In this document: piece by piece, positions 7,058-63,991 of the stretch
Position numbering within the stretch: the stretch's first letter is position 1
Layout of the letters: the number at the start of each line of letters is the position of its first letter
Source: Parcubacteria group bacterium
GTDB taxonomy: Bacteria > Patescibacteriota > Patescibacteriia > UBA2169
Reading direction: 5' to 3'
NCBI GenBank assembly: GCA_016181765.1
Contig: JACOYR010000001.1
Span: 221,414 to 285,413, forward strand
Length of the DNA stretch: 64,000 nucleotides
Made by a program: the position numbers and the translations under genes
The notes under the pieces: model-generated
The model's input: only the letters and a program-made list of their open reading frames with translations
What the model was told of the DNA's origin: nothing
The model's database searches: none

Positions 7058-7684
7058 CTACAATCGCACTCTCTGTTTTTTCACCGCATCTTCAAAAAAT
7101 CTGCTCAACCCCGCTTTAGTGACCGCACGTTTTAGGAACACGACGCTTGTCTCGCTTACATCATCAAGGTACACCAGCTGCTCAAGGAAGAGCCGATCAT
7201 TGAAATCATCGCCATACACCCGCGCGGCCCGCCGCATAACGCTGCCAAGCGCGGCGCGTTTCTCTTTGAGTATGCAGTACAAGTCAAAGTAGTCCTTAAA
7301 ATCGCCTCTCCTTCCGATGGTGTATGCTTTGGTGACTGCAATATCAGGAACCGCCAGCAACTGAACGCCCCGGTAGGAAACGGTTTTTTGTTTGATCGCA
7401 TACGGATAGTGCAAAAATGTGCACTTAACGCCGGCAATGATCACGGTGAGCTCATCGCGATTGTTCACTAAATCGCGCACCGCATCATCAAAAAATACGT
7501 CTTTAACTTTCTGCAGCAACGAGTTGCGGATGGGGGCATGGGTGAATAAATCAAAATCAACGGAAACGCGATGCCCGATTTGCAGCGCGAGCGCCGTGCC
7601 CCCGGCAAGATAGAACCCCCTAAACTCACCGAGCTTTGGAAACAGTTCTGCGGCCTTTTTTGTGAGCGCCTCGTGGTGCATAGC
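7058..7684 (-). CDS. AbiEii/AbiGii-family nucleotidyltransferase toxin (type IV TA)
   Basis: LAGGTALALQIGHRVSVDFDLF signature (GGTAL...HRxSxDxD). Start taken at MHHEALTKK; the longer ORF to 7891 is probably read-through of the upstream gene. Confidence 0.7.
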   Translation of the reverse strand, partial: AMHHEALTKKAAELFPKLGEFRGFYLAGGTALALQIGHRVSVDFDLFTHAPIRNSLLQKVKDVFFDDAVRDLVNNRDELTVIIAGVKCTFLHYPYAIKQKTVSYRGVQLLAVPDIAVTKAYTIGRRGDFKDYFDLYCILKEKRAALGSVMRRAARVYGDDFNDRLFLEQLVYLDDVSETSVVFLKRAVTKAGLSRFFEDAVKKQRVRL

Positions 7685-7952
7685 GGTATGATTTGACAGA
7701 AAAAATAATGCCAGCCAAAGGCCGAACGTGCGCGCGAAGCGCGGTTCGCGGCACTCCTGCAAGCACGCGGCCAACCCCCCGGCGGCCGTACCGCTTGGCA
7801 ATCCACCGCCAGTGCCGCAAGCTCCCATAGTTGACGGCCGCCGTGATAATCGTCTTTTTGTCGCGCGTCGCATCAAGCCGACCGACGTCATACGACCACA
7901 GGATGGGCTTGAAAAATGACGGAAGTTTTGATGGCTGTTTTTCCTTGCTCAT
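7626..7952 (-). CDS. putative cognate antitoxin of the AbiEii toxin (short, AbiEi-like?)
   Basis: Small ORF immediately upstream of and overlapping the toxin start. An extended -10 (TGGTATACT, minus) lies 6 nt upstream of the ATG, implying leaderless expression. Confidence 0.45.
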   Translation of the reverse strand: MSKEKQPSKLPSFFKPILWSYDVGRLDATRDKKTIITAAVNYGSLRHWRWIAKRYGRRGVGRVLAGVPRTALRAHVRPLAGIIFSVKSYRYAPRGAHKKGRRTVSKAR

Positions 7953-11142: not shown

Positions 11143-12429
11143 TCAATGCAGCAGTTCCCGCGTAATTACCTTGTACTCCTCCACATTCGGCTGGTCAAAC
11201 GCGTTGACGCGCATCAGGCGTGCGAGGAGCATGGTTTCCACCATCTTAAACTGCAAAAATTCCCCTAATGATTCTTCATCCAGGCGCTCCAGCTCAACCT
11301 CAACAAACGGGAGGCTGCGGTCCGCAAATGACCGGACCGTGCCCGTGTAAATCGCGTCCATGACTTCGCCCACTGACTTGCGGTTCAGCTCTGGAACAAT
11401 CGCGTCAAACTCCTCGTCCACGCGCGGGATGCTGATGTCTTGTTTGGCGCGGACTTTTACGAACGTGGTGAACTTATCCTCGGGCCCGCCAAGCAGGAGT
11501 TGAAATACTGAATGCAGGTCCGTTGAGCCAATAGTGACGAGCGGGGTGATGCCTGCGTGCACAATGCGGCCGGAAAGGTCGCGCTCCTTGCCCAGCGATT
11601 CCCCCACCAGCTGGCGGTACCACTTGCCGACGCGCTCCAAGTCTTGGTTGAAGATGAACGTGTTATGGATAGCCACGCCCTTTTTCATGGCATGGTGGAT
11701 GGCAACTGCTGATTGTAAAGCGGCGTTGTGCTCTTCGTCGTTTGACAAGCACCGCCGCAGGGCGCGCACTGCCCCTTTGTGCAGTTTTTTGATGTCTACC
11801 CCGGCAAGTGCCAACTGAAACAAGCCAACCGCACTGAACACGCTCCAGCGCCCCCCCACGTTTGGAGGGTTGGGCAGGGACGGGACATCCTGGGCTCGCG
11901 CCCAATGATCAAGCAAAGATTGCGGCTCCGTGGTCACCACAACTGACTCGCGCCAGTGCTTGGTCAACGACTTTAGGCAGTCAATCAAGACCCGCGCGTT
12001 CATCATGGTCTCGCTGGTGGTGCCGGATTTGCTTATGACGTTAATGAGCACCCGACCTTTCTTGCGGTAGATTGCGCGCATGCGCTGGCAGGCTTCCTTC
12101 AAGAGGCGCACATGCGCAGTATCAAAAAATGACAAGGGAACGCCCCCGGGCTTTAACGCATCATACACTGCCCACGTGCCCAAATTTGAGCCGCCAATGC
12201 CGACCACCATAACCTCATGCAGTCTACGGGATGATTTCTCGTGTGCAAGGCGGCTCACCTCGGCGCGGAGCGTTTCATCGGACGGAAGGTGCAGGCACGA
12301 CTCATTGCTTGCGTATGACGCATCAGCCGCAGCCACGCGCAACTCCTCCAGGTACCCGGAAAGCTCATGCCCGGCGCGGGCCGCGTCCCGCTCACTGATG
12401 TGCGATGTTTCTTTGTACGAAAACTTCAT
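11143..12429 (-). CDS. pgi: glucose-6-phosphate isomerase
   Basis: VVGIGGSNLG and ISKSGTTSET motifs of PGI; near-leaderless start after a TGGTATAAT -10. Confidence 0.85.
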   Translation of the reverse strand: MKFSYKETSHISERDAARAGHELSGYLEELRVAAADASYASNESCLHLPSDETLRAEVSRLAHEKSSRRLHEVMVVGIGGSNLGTWAVYDALKPGGVPLSFFDTAHVRLLKEACQRMRAIYRKKGRVLINVISKSGTTSETMMNARVLIDCLKSLTKHWRESVVVTTEPQSLLDHWARAQDVPSLPNPPNVGGRWSVFSAVGLFQLALAGVDIKKLHKGAVRALRRCLSNDEEHNAALQSAVAIHHAMKKGVAIHNTFIFNQDLERVGKWYRQLVGESLGKERDLSGRIVHAGITPLVTIGSTDLHSVFQLLLGGPEDKFTTFVKVRAKQDISIPRVDEEFDAIVPELNRKSVGEVMDAIYTGTVRSFADRSLPFVEVELERLDEESLGEFLQFKMVETMLLARLMRVNAFDQPNVEEYKVITRELLH

Positions 12430-14652: not shown

Positions 14653-16635
14653 TCAAGCTGTGGCGCTTGAAAAGTTGTTGATGACGAACGAGGCAATGCC
14701 CCATGCCGCAAATATAACAAAGAGCCCGATGACCCCGGCTATGATGGCCTGCTTGCCGGACGCGGTCTGGTCCTCGTTGCCTGCGGCTGTCATCATTCTG
14801 AACCCGCCGAAGATGATGAAAATGACTGCGATAACTCCTAAAAATCCGAGGACAATATTGATGATGGCCGCGATTGAGCCCTTGAGGTCATTAGACTGCC
14901 CGATACCCACCCGCGAGAACGTGCTCGCGAGCCCGTAGTTGGAAGCGCGCGGATCAAGCGGGGTGCTGATTGCGGTGTCGGCGCCGATGTTGCCGCCGCC
15001 GACACCGCAATCAGCGGATGAAGCCCGGCACTGGTTGCCGCACCACACAAATCCGAATGACGTGCATGAGGATTCGTTAGTGCATAGCGAAGGCGCGGTT
15101 GCACAAGAATCACCCGCGCTTTCTTGTTGAATCACCACATTTCGCTGAAAGCTCTCTTCCTGGGCAGGGCTTGAGCCGTCACTCACGGTCGCTACCACAT
15201 CAAACGTCCCGTATGCGCTAAATGAGTATTCGCACTCCAAAGTGGTTGCGGTTGAGGTGCACGGCGCGGTGGTCCGGTTAGCCGGGGAAAGCTGGATTTG
15301 GTACGGAGGCGTGCCGTTTGAGGCAGTGGCGCGGAACACGTACGTCTGCGGAGCAGGAGGAGCGAGCCCGGTGCCAATCTGGATGGTGAGTGATTTGTTG
15401 TTTGACTCAACCAAAGTGACGAGGAGCGGCGATGGTGCGGACGCAATGTTCAGGGTCGGAGAGAACGGGGTGGTGCCCGCGGGCGCGTTCGTGTTGATAA
15501 TGCTATGGGTGATGGCGTCGGTCTGGGTGCGGAACGTGGCATCAATCACCGTAAGGTAAATGTTCTTAAGTCCGCTCCTCCTAAACTGGGCATCCAGCTG
15601 GCTGGTGCGGCCAAAGGTCGCCACTTCGTAGGTAATGAAGTCATTAGGCTGCTCATCAGTGGGCACGTCATTGGGGTAGTTCCAGATGTAGGTGAACGGC
15701 GGCACCCCGCCATCAACAGCGGCATCGGCGCTGTAGTTGACTGAACCGAACGTGAACGGTTCAGCCTGGCCGGAATAGACGCCCGGAGCTGTAGCGCTCG
15801 TCACGTCAACCGAAAACGCGGCATCTCCGACCGTTGCTGGATTGTCGGTTGCAAAAAACACGTACGAGCTTGTGTCATACACCGGAATGTAACCGCCTCC
15901 AACCGCATTGGATTGGTTCGCCCGCAGGGTAATCTCATACCACCCTGGCACGGGGATGATAACAGAGAACGCACCGGCCGCATCGCTCGTGACGCTCACG
16001 CTATCGGCTTTCACCTCGGTTCGCGACGAGTCCGCAACGCGCCACTGGAATGTCTGCTCCGCCGTCCAGAAACCGGAGTTGATGCCCCGGACCGAGGCAT
16101 TGGCTCGGAAGTCAATCTGCGAACCGGTTGCGTAGGGCCCAGGCCCGTCAACCCTGGTGACGTTCGCGAATGGCCACGTATCCCGCACACCGGCCTTTTC
16201 CGCGAGGGTCAGGGAATTATAATTATCCGGCAGCCTAAGCGGCTTGACGTCAATGTCAAACGGGTACTGGGCCGCGGGCTGGACGCCGGTGCTCGCGTAG
16301 AGCCGCAGCACGGGCCGAATGACGGCTGTTGATGCAAACTGCTTGTCATAGAGGTGCGTTGCCCTGCCATTATTGCCGACATCGCCAATGGCGGATTCAC
16401 CGTCTCCAAAGTCCCACACATAGATAAGCCCGGCCGCGTCAGCTACGTTCGCGGTAAAAGTGACCGGCTCGCGCGCATACACTGCATTCGGGGCCGGAGT
16501 GTATGAGACCGAAGTAATGGCAGGAGCCGCGGAAACTGCGGGCGCAAAAAAAACGTTCCCGAAAAAGAACGGCGCGCTCACCAGGGCCGATGAAACCAAC
16601 CTGACTAATAGCCTGATCCCGCGATGAATCATCAA
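14653..16635 (-). CDS. secreted PKD-domain surface protein with C-terminal two-TM pilin-like (TrbC/VirB2-like) anchor
   Basis: Signal peptide; VWDFGDGESAIG PKD motif; Cys-rich region; C-terminal two hydrophobic helices (IAAIINIVLGFLGVIAVIFIIFGG ... AIIAGVIGLFVIFAAWGIASFVI). Confidence 0.6.
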   Translation of the reverse strand: MMIHRGIRLLVRLVSSALVSAPFFFGNVFFAPAVSAAPAITSVSYTPAPNAVYAREPVTFTANVADAAGLIYVWDFGDGESAIGDVGNNGRATHLYDKQFASTAVIRPVLRLYASTGVQPAAQYPFDIDVKPLRLPDNYNSLTLAEKAGVRDTWPFANVTRVDGPGPYATGSQIDFRANASVRGINSGFWTAEQTFQWRVADSSRTEVKADSVSVTSDAAGAFSVIIPVPGWYEITLRANQSNAVGGGYIPVYDTSSYVFFATDNPATVGDAAFSVDVTSATAPGVYSGQAEPFTFGSVNYSADAAVDGGVPPFTYIWNYPNDVPTDEQPNDFITYEVATFGRTSQLDAQFRRSGLKNIYLTVIDATFRTQTDAITHSIINTNAPAGTTPFSPTLNIASAPSPLLVTLVESNNKSLTIQIGTGLAPPAPQTYVFRATASNGTPPYQIQLSPANRTTAPCTSTATTLECEYSFSAYGTFDVVATVSDGSSPAQEESFQRNVVIQQESAGDSCATAPSLCTNESSCTSFGFVWCGNQCRASSADCGVGGGNIGADTAISTPLDPRASNYGLASTFSRVGIGQSNDLKGSIAAIINIVLGFLGVIAVIFIIFGGFRMMTAAGNEDQTASGKQAIIAGVIGLFVIFAAWGIASFVINNFSSATA

Positions 16636-60131: not shown

Positions 60132-60509
60132 CTACATCTTGATTTCAATGTCTACCCCAGAGGGCAGGTTGAGATTCATGAGTGAATCAACGGTTTTGGG
60201 AGTCGGATCCAGGATGTCAACCAAGCGCTTGTGCACGCGCATCTCGTACTGGTCCCGGCTGTTCTTGTGCACGAATGTGGAAGCGTTCACCGTGTATTTG
60301 GTTTTTTCCGTCGGCAGAGGAATGGGGCCGGAAATCTCGGCGCCGCTCCGCTCCGCAGTATCAATAATCGTGCGCGTGGACTGGTCAATGATCTTTGAGT
60401 CGTACGCGCGGATTTTGATACGGATCCGCTGGCGCGCCGCGTTGTTCTGCTCTCCTGCGTTTTGTTTGCCCCCGGGTTTTTCGCCGGGGCTTGCCTTCTT
60501 TTCTGCCAT
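60132..60509 (-). CDS. rpsJ: 30S ribosomal protein S10 (with ~25-aa N-terminal extension)
   Basis: [18 protein letters not shown] core. Confidence 0.9.
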
Positions 60510-60566: not shown

Positions 60567-61757
<1,191 letters not shown>

Positions 61758-61822: not shown

Positions 61823-62212
61823 CTAGCCTACTTTCTCAAAATAAAAGGGCTCTTCCTGCTCGTCAAGATCATCATCAAAATCATCATATTCGCCAAAATT
61901 TTGGCTAGTATCAGCCAAATTATCAGTATACGGGTCAAAATCGGGTTCATCTTGGACGTGCTCGGCATTGAGCTGGGCGCTGGTGTGCCGACTCTCATCC
62001 TGCTGGCTTTTCCACACCGCTATATCCCGGTTGATTTTGTCAAGCAGTTCATCCTCTGAGAGCTCGGAAACATCGGCCTGGCGCACGGCCATGCGCTCGT
62101 ATTCGGCCAAGGACATCACCACGTACGCTTCATCCTTACTTTGCGACAGCACAATGCACCGGTCTCCGGTTTTGTTGATGAGGCTGAATACTCTGTTGAG
62201 TGCGTCATGCAT
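61823..62212 (-). CDS. hypothetical protein with antitoxin-like N-terminus and acidic tail
   Basis: GDRCIVLSQSKDEAYVVMSLAEYERM resembles Phd/YefM-type beta-alpha antitoxin N-termini; C-terminal DE-rich segment. Confidence 0.35.
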   Translation of the reverse strand: MHDALNRVFSLINKTGDRCIVLSQSKDEAYVVMSLAEYERMAVRQADVSELSEDELLDKINRDIAVWKSQQDESRHTSAQLNAEHVQDEPDFDPYTDNLADTSQNFGEYDDFDDDLDEQEEPFYFEKVG

Positions 62213-62226
62213 ATGTGTAATGTTAA

Positions 62227-63714
62227 TTACATTTGGGTGACGTGAAAGAGTTCAAAGTACTTACCTAATCGCGGCGCGCGGGCGCCGTATCCCACCAGTG
62301 AGAGCTCCGGCACCACTTCCGCGCGCAAACGCGCGAGTGATTTTGCGGCAACGTCAAAGCGCAGGCGCGCGAGTTGAGATTTTTGCGCGGTGATTGCTTT
62401 GAGTTTTTTCTTCATGAGCGACTCATCGTACGCGAACACGGTGTTGAACTCCCCCTCCGAGAAGAGCGACCACAAGCCCTCGTAGTTGTACACCAAAATG
62501 TCGCGCTTCTTCTGCGCCTGGTGCTTTGCGAGCGCGAGAAGCGCAATGCTGCGGCTCTTTGCGTGCGTGGGGTGCCGGTCAAGCTCGTGCGGCACAAAGA
62601 GCAGGTCCGGCTTGGTGCGGTTGAATATGGCTGCGAGCTTTTCCGTGTCGCGGACAAGCGCTTCGCGTTCGTTTTTTGCGTCATAAAACTCCGCGCGCAG
62701 GAAAACAGGAATCGCACCCAGGATTTTGGATTCTTCGCGCGCTTCCTTTTCCCGGATTTTTATGACTTCCTCGGGCTTGGCCCCGTCCACCACGCTGCGG
62801 TAGCCTGTGGTTGCGATCACGATGTGCACGCGGTTGCGCTTTGCGAGCGCGGCAATGAGGCCGCCCATGGAAATGGACGCATCATCCGGGTGCGGGGAAA
62901 CAACGGTGATATACTTGCCACTCGGGATATCCTGCTCCGTGAGCACCTCAACGTCCCCTTCTCCAAAGAGCAGGGGTGATGCGTAGTCGCGTTCCAGTTT
63001 GGAAGCGGCTGCCTCATCAATAATGAGCGTAACATCCGGATGCCACTGCAAGAGCGATGCAGGCACGTCCTTGCTGACGCGGCCCTCAACCGTTGCTTTG
63101 ACTGCGTCCGCTTTTGCCGAACCTGATGCGATGAGCGCTATTTTTTTGGCGTCCATGATGGTGCCCAGGCCCATGGTGATTGCCTGCTCCGGCACCCTGC
63201 CCTCCTTAAAGTGCTTTGCGTTCTTTTTGCGCGTATGCTCTGACAGCTGCGCAACGTGGGTCCGCGCCGCAAACGGGGTGCCTGGCTCATTGAATCCGAT
63301 GTGCCCGTTCGGCGCGATCCCAAGAACCTGCAGATCAATCCTGCCCGCGTCTTTGATGGCTGACTCGTACTGCTCGCATTCGGCGTTGAGATCCCGCGCG
63401 CGGCCGTTGGGCAGGTATATGTTTTTCTTTTTGATGTTTACATGGTTGAACAAATGGCGGTCCATGAAGTGGTGGAACGAATCAGCGTCCTTTTCCGAAA
63501 GCCCCGCGTACTCGTCCAAATTGAACGTGCTGGCGCGCGAAAAATCCGCCCTGCCTTTTTTGCGGGCCAAAACAAGGCGCTCGTACATGCCTATGGGCGT
63601 CTCGCCGGTCGGAAGCCCGAGTACCAAATCCGGCTTGCGCCACAGGTGCGCCAGAACGAACCGGCTGGCGCTATCGCTCATCTCATCGTAGTTTTTGGTG
63701 ATGATGACTTTCAT
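62227..63714 (-). CDS. nagB: fusion protein: glucosamine-6-phosphate deaminase (NagB) N-domain + PIG-L/LmbE-family deacetylase C-domain
   Basis: N-half has LGLPTGETP, FNLDEYAGL and NGHIGFNEP (NagB). C-half has VVSPHPDDASISMGG and a HELDRHPTH histidine cluster (PIG-L). Start MKVIITK (ATG 63712-63714). Confidence 0.7.
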   Translation of the reverse strand: MKVIITKNYDEMSDSASRFVLAHLWRKPDLVLGLPTGETPIGMYERLVLARKKGRADFSRASTFNLDEYAGLSEKDADSFHHFMDRHLFNHVNIKKKNIYLPNGRARDLNAECEQYESAIKDAGRIDLQVLGIAPNGHIGFNEPGTPFAARTHVAQLSEHTRKKNAKHFKEGRVPEQAITMGLGTIMDAKKIALIASGSAKADAVKATVEGRVSKDVPASLLQWHPDVTLIIDEAAASKLERDYASPLLFGEGDVEVLTEQDIPSGKYITVVSPHPDDASISMGGLIAALAKRNRVHIVIATTGYRSVVDGAKPEEVIKIREKEAREESKILGAIPVFLRAEFYDAKNEREALVRDTEKLAAIFNRTKPDLLFVPHELDRHPTHAKSRSIALLALAKHQAQKKRDILVYNYEGLWSLFSEGEFNTVFAYDESLMKKKLKAITAQKSQLARLRFDVAAKSLARLRAEVVPELSLVGYGARAPRLGKYFELFHVTQM

Positions 63715-63991
63715 GCCTTGAATTGTACCTATTTTTAGGCAAAAAGAAAAGGAGCCGAATCGCACTTGCGACCCGGCCCCCGCGGTTCCGGAATGCCCTG
63801 TGAACAAAAGGCACCAACTGAAACCGCAACACACCGCGAGTGGTCGACCTCCTTGGGTTGCGAAAACAAACAGCAAACCAGTAAAGAACGACCGCTCCCG
63901 CGAGGACATACAGCGCCGCCCAGCGGGGCTGCAGAGCCGCGGCCGCGAGCAGCACTGCCTCAACGAGCAGGAAAAACAACAAGAAGAGCAT
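63683..63991 (-). CDS. questionable small membrane protein ORF (overlaps nagB start)
   Basis: Hydrophobic N-terminus MLFLLFFLLVEAVLLAAAAL; overlaps nagB; no support beyond the ORF. Confidence 0.2.
   Translation of the reverse strand: MLFLLFFLLVEAVLLAAAALQPRWAALYVLAGAVVLYWFAVCFRNPRRSTTRGVLRFQLVPFVHRAFRNRGGRVASAIRLLFFLPKNRYNSRHESHHHQKLR

Follow-up and report, generated by a model that had tools for sequence, protein, structure and literature searches.

A NagB::PIG-L fusion protein of Parcubacteria as a candidate bifunctional N-acetylglucosamine-6-phosphate deacetylase and glucosamine-6-phosphate deaminase

The 64,000-nucleotide stretch of Parcubacteria group DNA analysed here (contig JACOYR010000001.1; the whole stretch is hereafter called the window) encodes a protein in which a glucosamine-6-phosphate (GlcN-6-P) deaminase of the NagB family is joined to a PIG-L/LmbE-type deacetylase domain. 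The NagB::PIG-L fusion gene occupies 62227..63714 on the minus strand, an open reading frame (ORF) whose translation runs to 495 codons plus a stop. We propose, with evenly balanced confidence, that the product is a bifunctional enzyme in which an N-acetylglucosamine-6-phosphate (GlcNAc-6-P) deacetylase, analogous to NagA, is coupled to NagB. Deacetylation of GlcNAc-6-P is the committed step both for the use of GlcNAc as food and for the recycling of cell-wall sugar, and NagA is, to our knowledge, the only enzyme known for it.

In the mechanism we envisage, two independently folding domains with intact catalytic residues would be held together by a flexible linker. The PIG-L domain would act as a zinc hydrolase that takes the N-acetyl group off a GlcNAc phosphate, most probably GlcNAc-6-P, and would thus be an analogue, though no homolog, of the amidohydrolase NagA. 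The NagB domain would interconvert GlcN-6-P with fructose-6-P and ammonium, and phosphoglucose isomerase (PGI), which is encoded in the window at 11146-12429, would link fructose-6-P to central metabolism. We infer that flux in vivo may be catabolic or may run toward GlcN-6-P for cell-wall synthesis.

One gene, two catalytic domains

The fusion gene starts at the ATG at 63714, and the last base of its stop codon is 62227, giving a 495-aa product. A longer ORF from a TTG at 63963 was considered and rejected, because the extension would cross a terminator-like hairpin and is missing both from homologs and from the deposited protein; we take ATG 63714 as the start for these reasons. The product is identical to an NCBI protein (P0001) from a Parcubacteria group metagenome-assembled genome (MAG), where it is annotated 'glucosamine-6-phosphate deaminase'. 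Moreover, an independent Logan assembly (L001) matches the DNA at 100% identity over 2,602 nt, covering the whole gene and the domain junction.

This analysis followed up a prediction made from the sequence alone, which had placed a NagB-deacetylase fusion at these coordinates and had raised the possibility that a frameshift artificially joins two genes. The coordinates were correct, with the gene lying on the minus strand. The chance that an assembly error or frameshift fused two neighbouring genes is vanishingly small: the frame is continuous with no stop or frameshift between the halves, the DNA is identical in the independent assembly, and more than 100 homologs have the same architecture.

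The N-terminal domain (aa 1-242; 62989..63714, minus strand) is a NagB of the monomeric, non-allosteric type. Pfam PF01182 (Glucosamine_iso) matches aa 27-223 (E=4e-22, 79.5 bits against a cutoff of 27), and the fusion protein scores 292 bits on the NCBIfam nagB model TIGR00502, above its cutoff of 236.9, while the domain falls well under the cutoff of the galactosamine-6-phosphate (GalN-6-P) isomerase model (164 against 271). Bacillus subtilis NagB (2bkv) aligns to it with E=1.8e-69 at 47-48% identity, and the AlphaFold2 (AF2) model superimposes on 2bkv with a template-modelling (TM) score of 0.97, a root-mean-square deviation of 0.9 Å and 47% identity.

The residues required of a working deaminase are in place. 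Catalytic D67, H138 and E143 align to D72, H143 and E148 of E. coli NagB, whose residue roles are well established, and phosphate-binding T36, G37, T39 and K201 align to T41, G42, T44 and K208; the position of E. coli R172 is K167, a conservative change. H138 and E143 belong to the active-site motif GHIGFNEPG (aa 137-145; 63280..63306, minus strand). Across 101 fused homologs, all seven catalytic and phosphate-binding residues are invariant or at least 90% conserved; D67, E68 and H138 are invariant, and E143 is at least 90% conserved. The allosteric GlcNAc-6-P site of E. coli NagB (Ser151, Arg158, Lys160, Thr161, Tyr254) is not kept, the aligned residues being T, H, A, Q and L, and the domain ends at about aa 242 like monomeric B. 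subtilis NagB, without the C-terminal extension of the E. coli protein. The N-domain thus belongs to the GlcN-6-P deaminase family and is predicted to be active, bearing out the original assignment of residues 1 to ~250.

A linker predicted to be disordered (aa 243-263; 62926..62988, minus strand) separates the two halves. The AlphaFold model has a mean predicted local distance difference test (pLDDT) score of 91, falling below 50 at aa 245-253, and a predicted TM score (pTM) of 0.58. In this model each domain seems to fold on its own, and how the two are oriented to each other is not confidently fixed.

The C-terminal domain (aa 264-495; 62230..62925, minus strand) is of the PIG-L/LmbE zinc deacetylase type. 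Pfam PF02585 (PIG-L) matches aa 271-392 strongly (E=2.4e-22, 80.2 bits against a cutoff of 28.2). The LmbE superfamily is defined by an HXD1D2 plus H metal motif with a spacer of 97-148 residues (PMC4101496), and here H275-P-D277-D278 and H384 form that motif with a spacer of 106. In motif 1, S-P-H275-P-D277-D278 (aa 273-278; 62881..62898, minus strand), H275 is the His ligand, D277 the general-base Asp and D278 the Asp ligand; in motif 2, D379-R-H381-P-T383-H384 (DRHPTH, aa 379-384; 62563..62580, minus strand), H384 is the third zinc ligand. The SPHPDD motif and histidine cluster that the original prediction had read as PIG-L were therefore recognised correctly.

H275, D277, D278, H384 and D379 are invariant across the 101 fused homologs, while conservation is 90% or higher at R321, H381 and T383. 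R321 and H381 are the counterparts of the MshB substrate residues Arg68 and His144; the counterpart of MshB Asp95 is probably D345, a less certain match taken from a HMMER alignment to the archaeal diacetylchitobiose deacetylase Dac, with a majority consensus of 'FYD'. Pfam and NCBIfam scans of the protein gave no amidohydrolase match (PF01979/TIGR00221). Judged by motif and profile, the domain belongs to the LmbE/PIG-L superfamily and is a predicted zinc deacetylase.

Motif 2 carries one departure from the superfamily pattern. T383 stands at the place of the canonical Asp that orients the adjacent His, so that the motif reads H-x-T-H rather than H-x-D-H; the aligned position is HPDH in Dac and in TT1542. 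None of the 50 nearest cluster representatives (0/50) has Asp there. The replacement of H-x-D-H by H-x-T-H across this deacetylase clade is, from these alignments, a new observation. Exchanging an active-site Asp for a neutral Thr might also suit an anionic phosphosugar.

NagB and PIG-L are recurrent partners

The fusion is widespread. Of the 120 best homologs, about 100 combine the two Pfam domains, and the fused homologs, which number more than 100 and come from many samples and phyla, are 30-85% identical to the window protein. At least five bacterial phyla are represented (Patescibacteria, Planctomycetota, Gemmatimonadota, Bacteroidota and Abditibacteriota), as is an archaeal contig. A short form of ~490 aa is found in Patescibacteria and on the archaeal contig, which has 31% GC and GatD/E genes. 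A long form of 615-730 aa is found in Planctomycetota, Gemmatimonadota, Bacteroidota (Prevotella) and Abditibacteriota; relative to the window protein it has ~55 additional linker residues and ~45 residues inserted in the deacetylase domain.

The closest match among GTDB representatives is a short form at 42% identity on a contig labelled Methanosarcinales (L002, CAZJQL010000013.1). Its GatD/GatE-type genes were judged by their N-terminal sequences, and this archaeal genome is possibly DPANN-like or mis-binned. In a Prevotella locus (L059, 10001-14872), a plain nagB of 263 aa is directly followed by a fused paralog of 663 aa and then by a GH97 glycosidase.

The architecture is already catalogued, widespread and annotated, and is not new; the novelty implied by the original prediction was overstated. 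The NCBIfam model NF002557/PRK02122 describes the long form: a Prevotella member scores 1028 bits on it, while the window protein scores 292 against a cutoff of 384, with its match spread over three stretches. These scores set the window protein apart as a short subfamily of its own with the same architecture. A 2026 paper lists 'nagB-PIGL' among prokaryote-to-ciliate gene transfers in anaerobic ciliates, with the candidate phyla radiation (CPR) among the donors (PMC13198582). There it is placed with AnmK, MurQ and NamZ in peptidoglycan amino-sugar degradation, on annotation only, under the labels EC 3.5.99.6 and EC 3.5.1.89 (PMC13198582). Literature matches to 'nagA' in papers on Patescibacteria were discarded, since they are author names in reference lists and not genes.

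The same two domains also occur as neighbours. When the C-domain by itself was searched exhaustively against 1.84 billion cluster representatives, 47 clusters matched at E<=1e-30 and 259 clusters at E<=1e-10, and the close relatives include stand-alone proteins of ~240-255 aa. Members of a further, large stand-alone PIG-L family of ~282 aa are encoded just upstream of a true nagB in each of the four contexts examined (4/4), the adjoining nagB products scoring 245-313 bits on TIGR00502. Its named members are mostly from Verrucomicrobiota/Kiritimatiellota, with one locus from a Bacteriovoracaceae MAG. Motif 2 reads D-K-H-x-[T/S]-H in 119 of 120 members of this family, which has lost the Asp just as the fusion family has.

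Other fusions extend the pattern. A 702-aa protein (P0365) joins a PIG-L domain, 41% identical to the window C-domain (E=6e-51), to a GlmM-like phosphohexomutase, and three independent sequences of 942 aa (P0379, P0506, P0509) are triple fusions of NagB, PIG-L and a GlmM-like mutase; loci with the triple fusion include L091 (8001-10829) and L092 (4781-7609). The mutase moieties best match phosphoglucosamine mutase (GlmM) models, at 311-334 bits. More distant proteins (P0434, P0449) fuse PIG-L to a PfkB sugar kinase. The PIG-L domains fused to GlmM-like and PfkB partners all carry H-x-T-H, whereas a distant GT2-fused PIG-L retains H-P-D-H.

The Bacteriovoracaceae locus (L065, 9141-12650) adds a pathway context. 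Its PIG-L gene (motif DKHPSH) is translationally coupled to nagB, and the pair adjoins a convergent gene for a 629-aa protein that combines a NagK-like BadF-type kinase with a MurQ etherase; the MurQ part scores 330 bits, well over its cutoff of 168. The product of MurQ is GlcNAc-6-P.

Directly upstream of two PIG-L-nagB pairs lies a gene for a conserved soluble protein of ~470 aa (L089, 4568-5986; L090, 4577-5986). It has no significant family match but shows ROK/ASKHA-like motifs (Pfam ROK E=0.031; PDB glucokinase 2qm1 E=0.003) and may be a divergent sugar kinase.

The NagB/PIG-L partnership thus recurs across many phyla, whether the two are fused or encoded by adjacent genes. Because about 100 of 120 homologs are fused, many phyla are represented, separate PIG-L-nagB pairs exist and the Thr/Ser variant is shared by the fused and the paired group, the partnership is, on comparative grounds, not accidental.

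Substrate of the deacetylase domain

GlcNAc-6-P is the substrate we favour because GlcN-6-P is the sole metabolite common to NagB and GlmM, because the kinase-MurQ neighbour would make GlcNAc-6-P, and because NagA is missing from the contexts examined. The loci were searched with E. coli NagA by tblastn. Of 66 fetched loci with a plain nagB, 18 have nagA beside it; of 25 PIG-L-linked loci, the window included, none has a nagA match (Fisher p=0.002, a value that ignores phylogeny, as the loci are not phylogenetically independent). Amidohydro_1 genes near some PIG-L-linked genes were considered as NagA candidates and rejected, being guanine deaminase (L088, L090) and HutI (L091).

The original prediction had proposed a channelling role for the fusion, from N-acetyl amino sugars through to fructose-6-P, with GlcNAc or chitobiose as candidate substrates, and had likened it to the archaeal Dac route. 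The comparative evidence agrees with the channelling, but GlcNAc or chitobiose is a less likely substrate than GlcNAc-6-P. In a Dac-like scheme, PIG-L would deacetylate GlcNAc or chitobiose to glucosamine (GlcN), a separate kinase would make GlcN-6-P, and only then would NagB act, leaving the two fused steps non-consecutive. The nearest solved relatives of the C-domain do lend themselves to this scheme: they are the Pyrococcus diacetylchitobiose deacetylases (E ~2e-12), followed by TT1542 and BshB1, and a Foldseek comparison with 4xm1/8bgo gives TM ~0.65. The best NCBIfam match is BshB1 (E=1e-14), at 55 against a cutoff of 182.5. Moreover, the ROK and PfkB kinases found as neighbours or fusion partners could act after deacetylation.

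Several observations nevertheless make a Dac-like route unlikely. Identity to Dac is only 23-24%, and the catalytic His259* that Dac supplies in trans has no conserved counterpart. Neither NagB nor a GlmM-like mutase can use GlcN, so that every fusion would depend on an unlinked kinase for an intervening step. Finally, the MurQ neighbour in the Bacteriovoracaceae locus yields GlcNAc-6-P and not GlcNAc. The Dac analogy therefore stands as far as structural kinship goes, whereas the partners (NagB, GlmM-like mutase, kinase-MurQ) favour GlcNAc-6-P.

We consider it quite improbable that the substrate is another N-acetylhexosamine phosphate. One version would convert GlcNAc-1-P to GlcN-1-P, which GlmM would turn into GlcN-6-P for NagB. 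Known LmbE substrates bear a C1 substituent on GlcNAc, similar to GlcNAc-1-P, and all three domains of the triple fusion would then act consecutively. The steps would be non-consecutive, however, in the far commoner two-domain form and in the PIG-L-nagB pairs, and no phosphorylase that produces GlcNAc-1-P is consistently linked. N-acetylgalactosamine-6-phosphate (GalNAc-6-P) and N-acetylmannosamine-6-phosphate (ManNAc-6-P) are further versions, and one locus has a DHDPS/NanA-like neighbour; against GalNAc-6-P, the NagB domain clears the GlcN-6-P deaminase cutoff and misses that for GalN-6-P isomerase by a wide margin.

A number of points weigh against a GlcNAc-6-P deacetylase coupled to NagB. 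All characterised LmbE enzymes act on non-phosphorylated GlcNAc glycosides (PMC4101496), which speaks equally for a Dac-like scheme, and the closest solved relatives of the C-domain deacetylate chitobiose or GlcNAc. The PIG-L protein of the Bacteriovoracaceae type is just 27% identical to the window C-domain, and the GlmM-like moieties fall under the trusted cutoff of 439. In 11 long-form loci, Pfam annotation of 133 flanking ORFs showed no recurrent family (maximum three members), GH20 appearing once, and the 64-kb window holds no NagA, sugar/GlcNAc kinase, MurQ, GlmS or GlmM. Literature searches found no biochemical study of any fusion member. The one attempt that these searches turned up, to express the possibly fused 'NagB' of the Flavobacterium johnsoniae chitin locus (ChiUL), failed (PMC5127042).

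The physiology of Bacteroides thetaiotaomicron belongs among these points. In a 2026 study, its NagA genes coexist with three annotated deaminase isozymes, BT_0258 being counted as one of them, and knockdowns were neutral. By analogy, the deacetylase domain may not be needed as a NagA substitute in every host. BT_0258 is presumably of the fused form; if so, the fusion would not simply be a NagA replacement everywhere.

The Thr variant itself raises the question of whether the PIG-L domain is catalytic. In MshB, Asp146 is thought to orient His144, and the D146A change leaves <=1% activity (PMC4101496). Its counterpart here is Thr383, so that catalysis may be altered. The domain might instead be a ligand-binding, regulatory or oligomerisation module, or an unrelated glycoconjugate enzyme, leaving NagB to act alone and possibly anabolically. 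That LmbE proteins are often hexameric would fit such a role, as would the placement of the gene beside housekeeping genes with no catabolic operon and the coexistence of NagA with deaminase isozymes in Bacteroides. We give this explanation a very low probability: metal ligands and general base are invariant and the substrate Arg and His at least 90% conserved among 101 divergent homologs, the Thr is itself conserved, which argues for a functional variant and not decay, and the partners are consistently amino-sugar-phosphate enzymes.

Genomic setting between fusA and tuf

The fusion gene is embedded in a str operon region. All on one strand, rpsL, rpsG, fusA and small ORFs come first, then NagB::PIG-L and an ORF of ~130 aa, and after these tuf, rpsJ, and rplC onward. 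This placement is kept in homologs down to ~55% identity (L082, L083 and the contig of P0013; contigs of 0.33-1.03 Mb). Short forms of greater divergence are found at other sites among housekeeping genes; the L087 copy, for instance, lies 22 nt after dnaG-rpoD.

Upstream, a terminator-like hairpin (63750..63781, minus strand; 14 bp, nine of them G-C, followed by a T-run) closes the preceding unit of fusA, a DUF2283 gene and a small ORF. The short 5' region between it and the fusion gene (63715..63749, minus strand) contains a TACAAT box at 63722-63727 that ends 7 nt before the ATG, and which we read from the sequence as a possible promoter. Inspection of this 5' region found no well-spaced Shine-Dalgarno sequence, the AAGG lying 1 nt from the ATG. 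Hairpin, TACAAT box and poor Shine-Dalgarno are compatible with a leaderless or very short-leader mRNA. No riboswitch or glmS-ribozyme-like element was found upstream, the Rfam search of the window at gathering thresholds returning five tRNAs only.

The sole difference between the window and the independent assembly in 2.6 kb also lies upstream of the fusion gene, in intergenic DNA. It is a 22-nt indel, CGACAGAGACAGTAGGTGAGGG, present in L001 (1367-1388) and missing from the window at ~63838. It alters how a small hydrophobic ORF upstream is read: in L001 this ORF has 55 aa, in the window 102 aa.

Downstream, the fusion gene was originally described as immediately upstream of tuf, but a conserved acidic Phd/YefM-like ORF of 129 aa (61823..62212, minus strand) intervenes. 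It begins 14 nt past the fusion stop and ends 65 nt before tuf (EF-Tu; 60567..61757, minus strand), which is followed by the S10 ribosomal-protein operon and serves as the downstream anchor of synteny. The 129-aa protein weakly resembles Phd/YefM at its N-terminus (Pfam E=0.0014) and has YYFEKV as a conserved C-terminal motif, with no toxin partner evident. Its family has 183 members, all annotated as hypothetical or antitoxin-like, and the named sources are almost always Patescibacteria/Parcubacteria, one being labelled Planctomycetes. L082, L083 and the P0013 contig keep the ORF in the same position ahead of tuf.

Because of the hairpin, the TACAAT box, the 14-nt gap and the proximity of tuf, the layout suggests a separate transcription start and constitutive expression for the fusion gene, which is probably co-transcribed with the 129-aa ORF.

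Farther away, the window encodes a protein with an AbiEii-type toxin domain (7061-7891, minus strand) and a 660-aa PKD/SprB-repeat protein with a T4SS-pilin domain at its end (14656-16635, minus strand). The called ORFs for L23 (58128-58610, minus strand; 160 aa) and S10 (60132-60509, minus strand; 125 aa) have N-terminal extensions.

Implications

We advance a broader hypothesis more tentatively, and would lean slightly against it if forced to choose: that the H-x-T-H PIG-L clade, be it fused or adjacent to NagB, a GlmM-like mutase or sugar kinases, is an LmbE-fold GlcNAc-6-P deacetylase and a widespread, non-homologous replacement for NagA. In this Parcubacteria lineage the fused enzyme would form a constitutive gateway through which GlcNAc and N-acetylmuramic acid (MurNAc) scavenged from the walls of other cells enter glycolysis, via NagB and PGI, and cell-wall synthesis, via GlcN-6-P.

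If this is true, pathway reconstructions based on NagA underestimate amino-sugar catabolism in groups that include CPR, Planctomycetota, Verrucomicrobiota and Gemmatimonadota, and LmbE enzymes have phosphosugars among their substrates. One gene, constitutively placed, that leads from scavenged wall sugar to fructose-6-P would also hint at the diet of Parcubacteria, which are ultra-small and dependent on a host or community. Should the hypothesis fail, an ordinary and already catalogued domain fusion remains.

Comparison with known systems

Among the nearest known relatives are the long forms modelled by NF002557. They have the same domain order and the same invariant catalytic residues as the window protein, and their motif 2 likewise carries Thr (H-G-T-H against H-P-T-H). 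The NagB half of the window protein passes the true-NagB cutoff, which the NagB half of the Prevotella long form misses (185 against 236.9 on TIGR00502). The 'nagB-PIGL' of the ciliate study is, by its description and not by sequence comparison, the same fusion with the same predicted role and a link to CPR; that work offers annotation labels only, with no residue analysis, substrate inference or biochemistry (PMC13198582).

Each half also resembles well-studied stand-alone enzymes. B. subtilis NagB (2bkv) has the same length (242 aa) and the same catalytic residues as the N-domain, and neither has an allosteric site; it is free-standing, and its gene accompanies that of the amidohydrolase NagA, whereas the window NagB carries a C-terminal PIG-L. 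Archaeal Dac (CE14; 3wl4, 3we7, 8bgn/8bgo) has in common with the C-domain the His-Asp-His zinc triad and the general-base Asp, but reads H-P-D-H where the window protein reads H-P-T-H. In the Dac hexamer, the catalytic His259* is supplied by the C-terminal extension of a neighbouring subunit (PMC9779004). The family alignment of the C-domain has no invariant or near-invariant His after H384, and the alignment to Dac ends at about aa 448. Unlike the window protein, Dac is not joined to NagB; it works with the SIS-type deaminase GlmD and with a kinase that is likewise separate.

MshB and BshB have the HXDD plus H motif and the conserved substrate Arg and His in common with the C-domain. Their partners serve thiol biosynthesis (mycothiol and bacillithiol), whereas the partners of the C-domain are amino-sugar-phosphate enzymes, and Asp146 is replaced by Thr. 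NagA is the closest parallel in proposed function: it would catalyse the same reaction, the step right before NagB, and the adjacent slot that it holds in plain nagB loci is held elsewhere by PIG-L. NagA is a TIM-barrel amidohydrolase and the C-domain has an LmbE Rossmann-like fold, so the two are not homologous, and any equivalence between them would be one of function.

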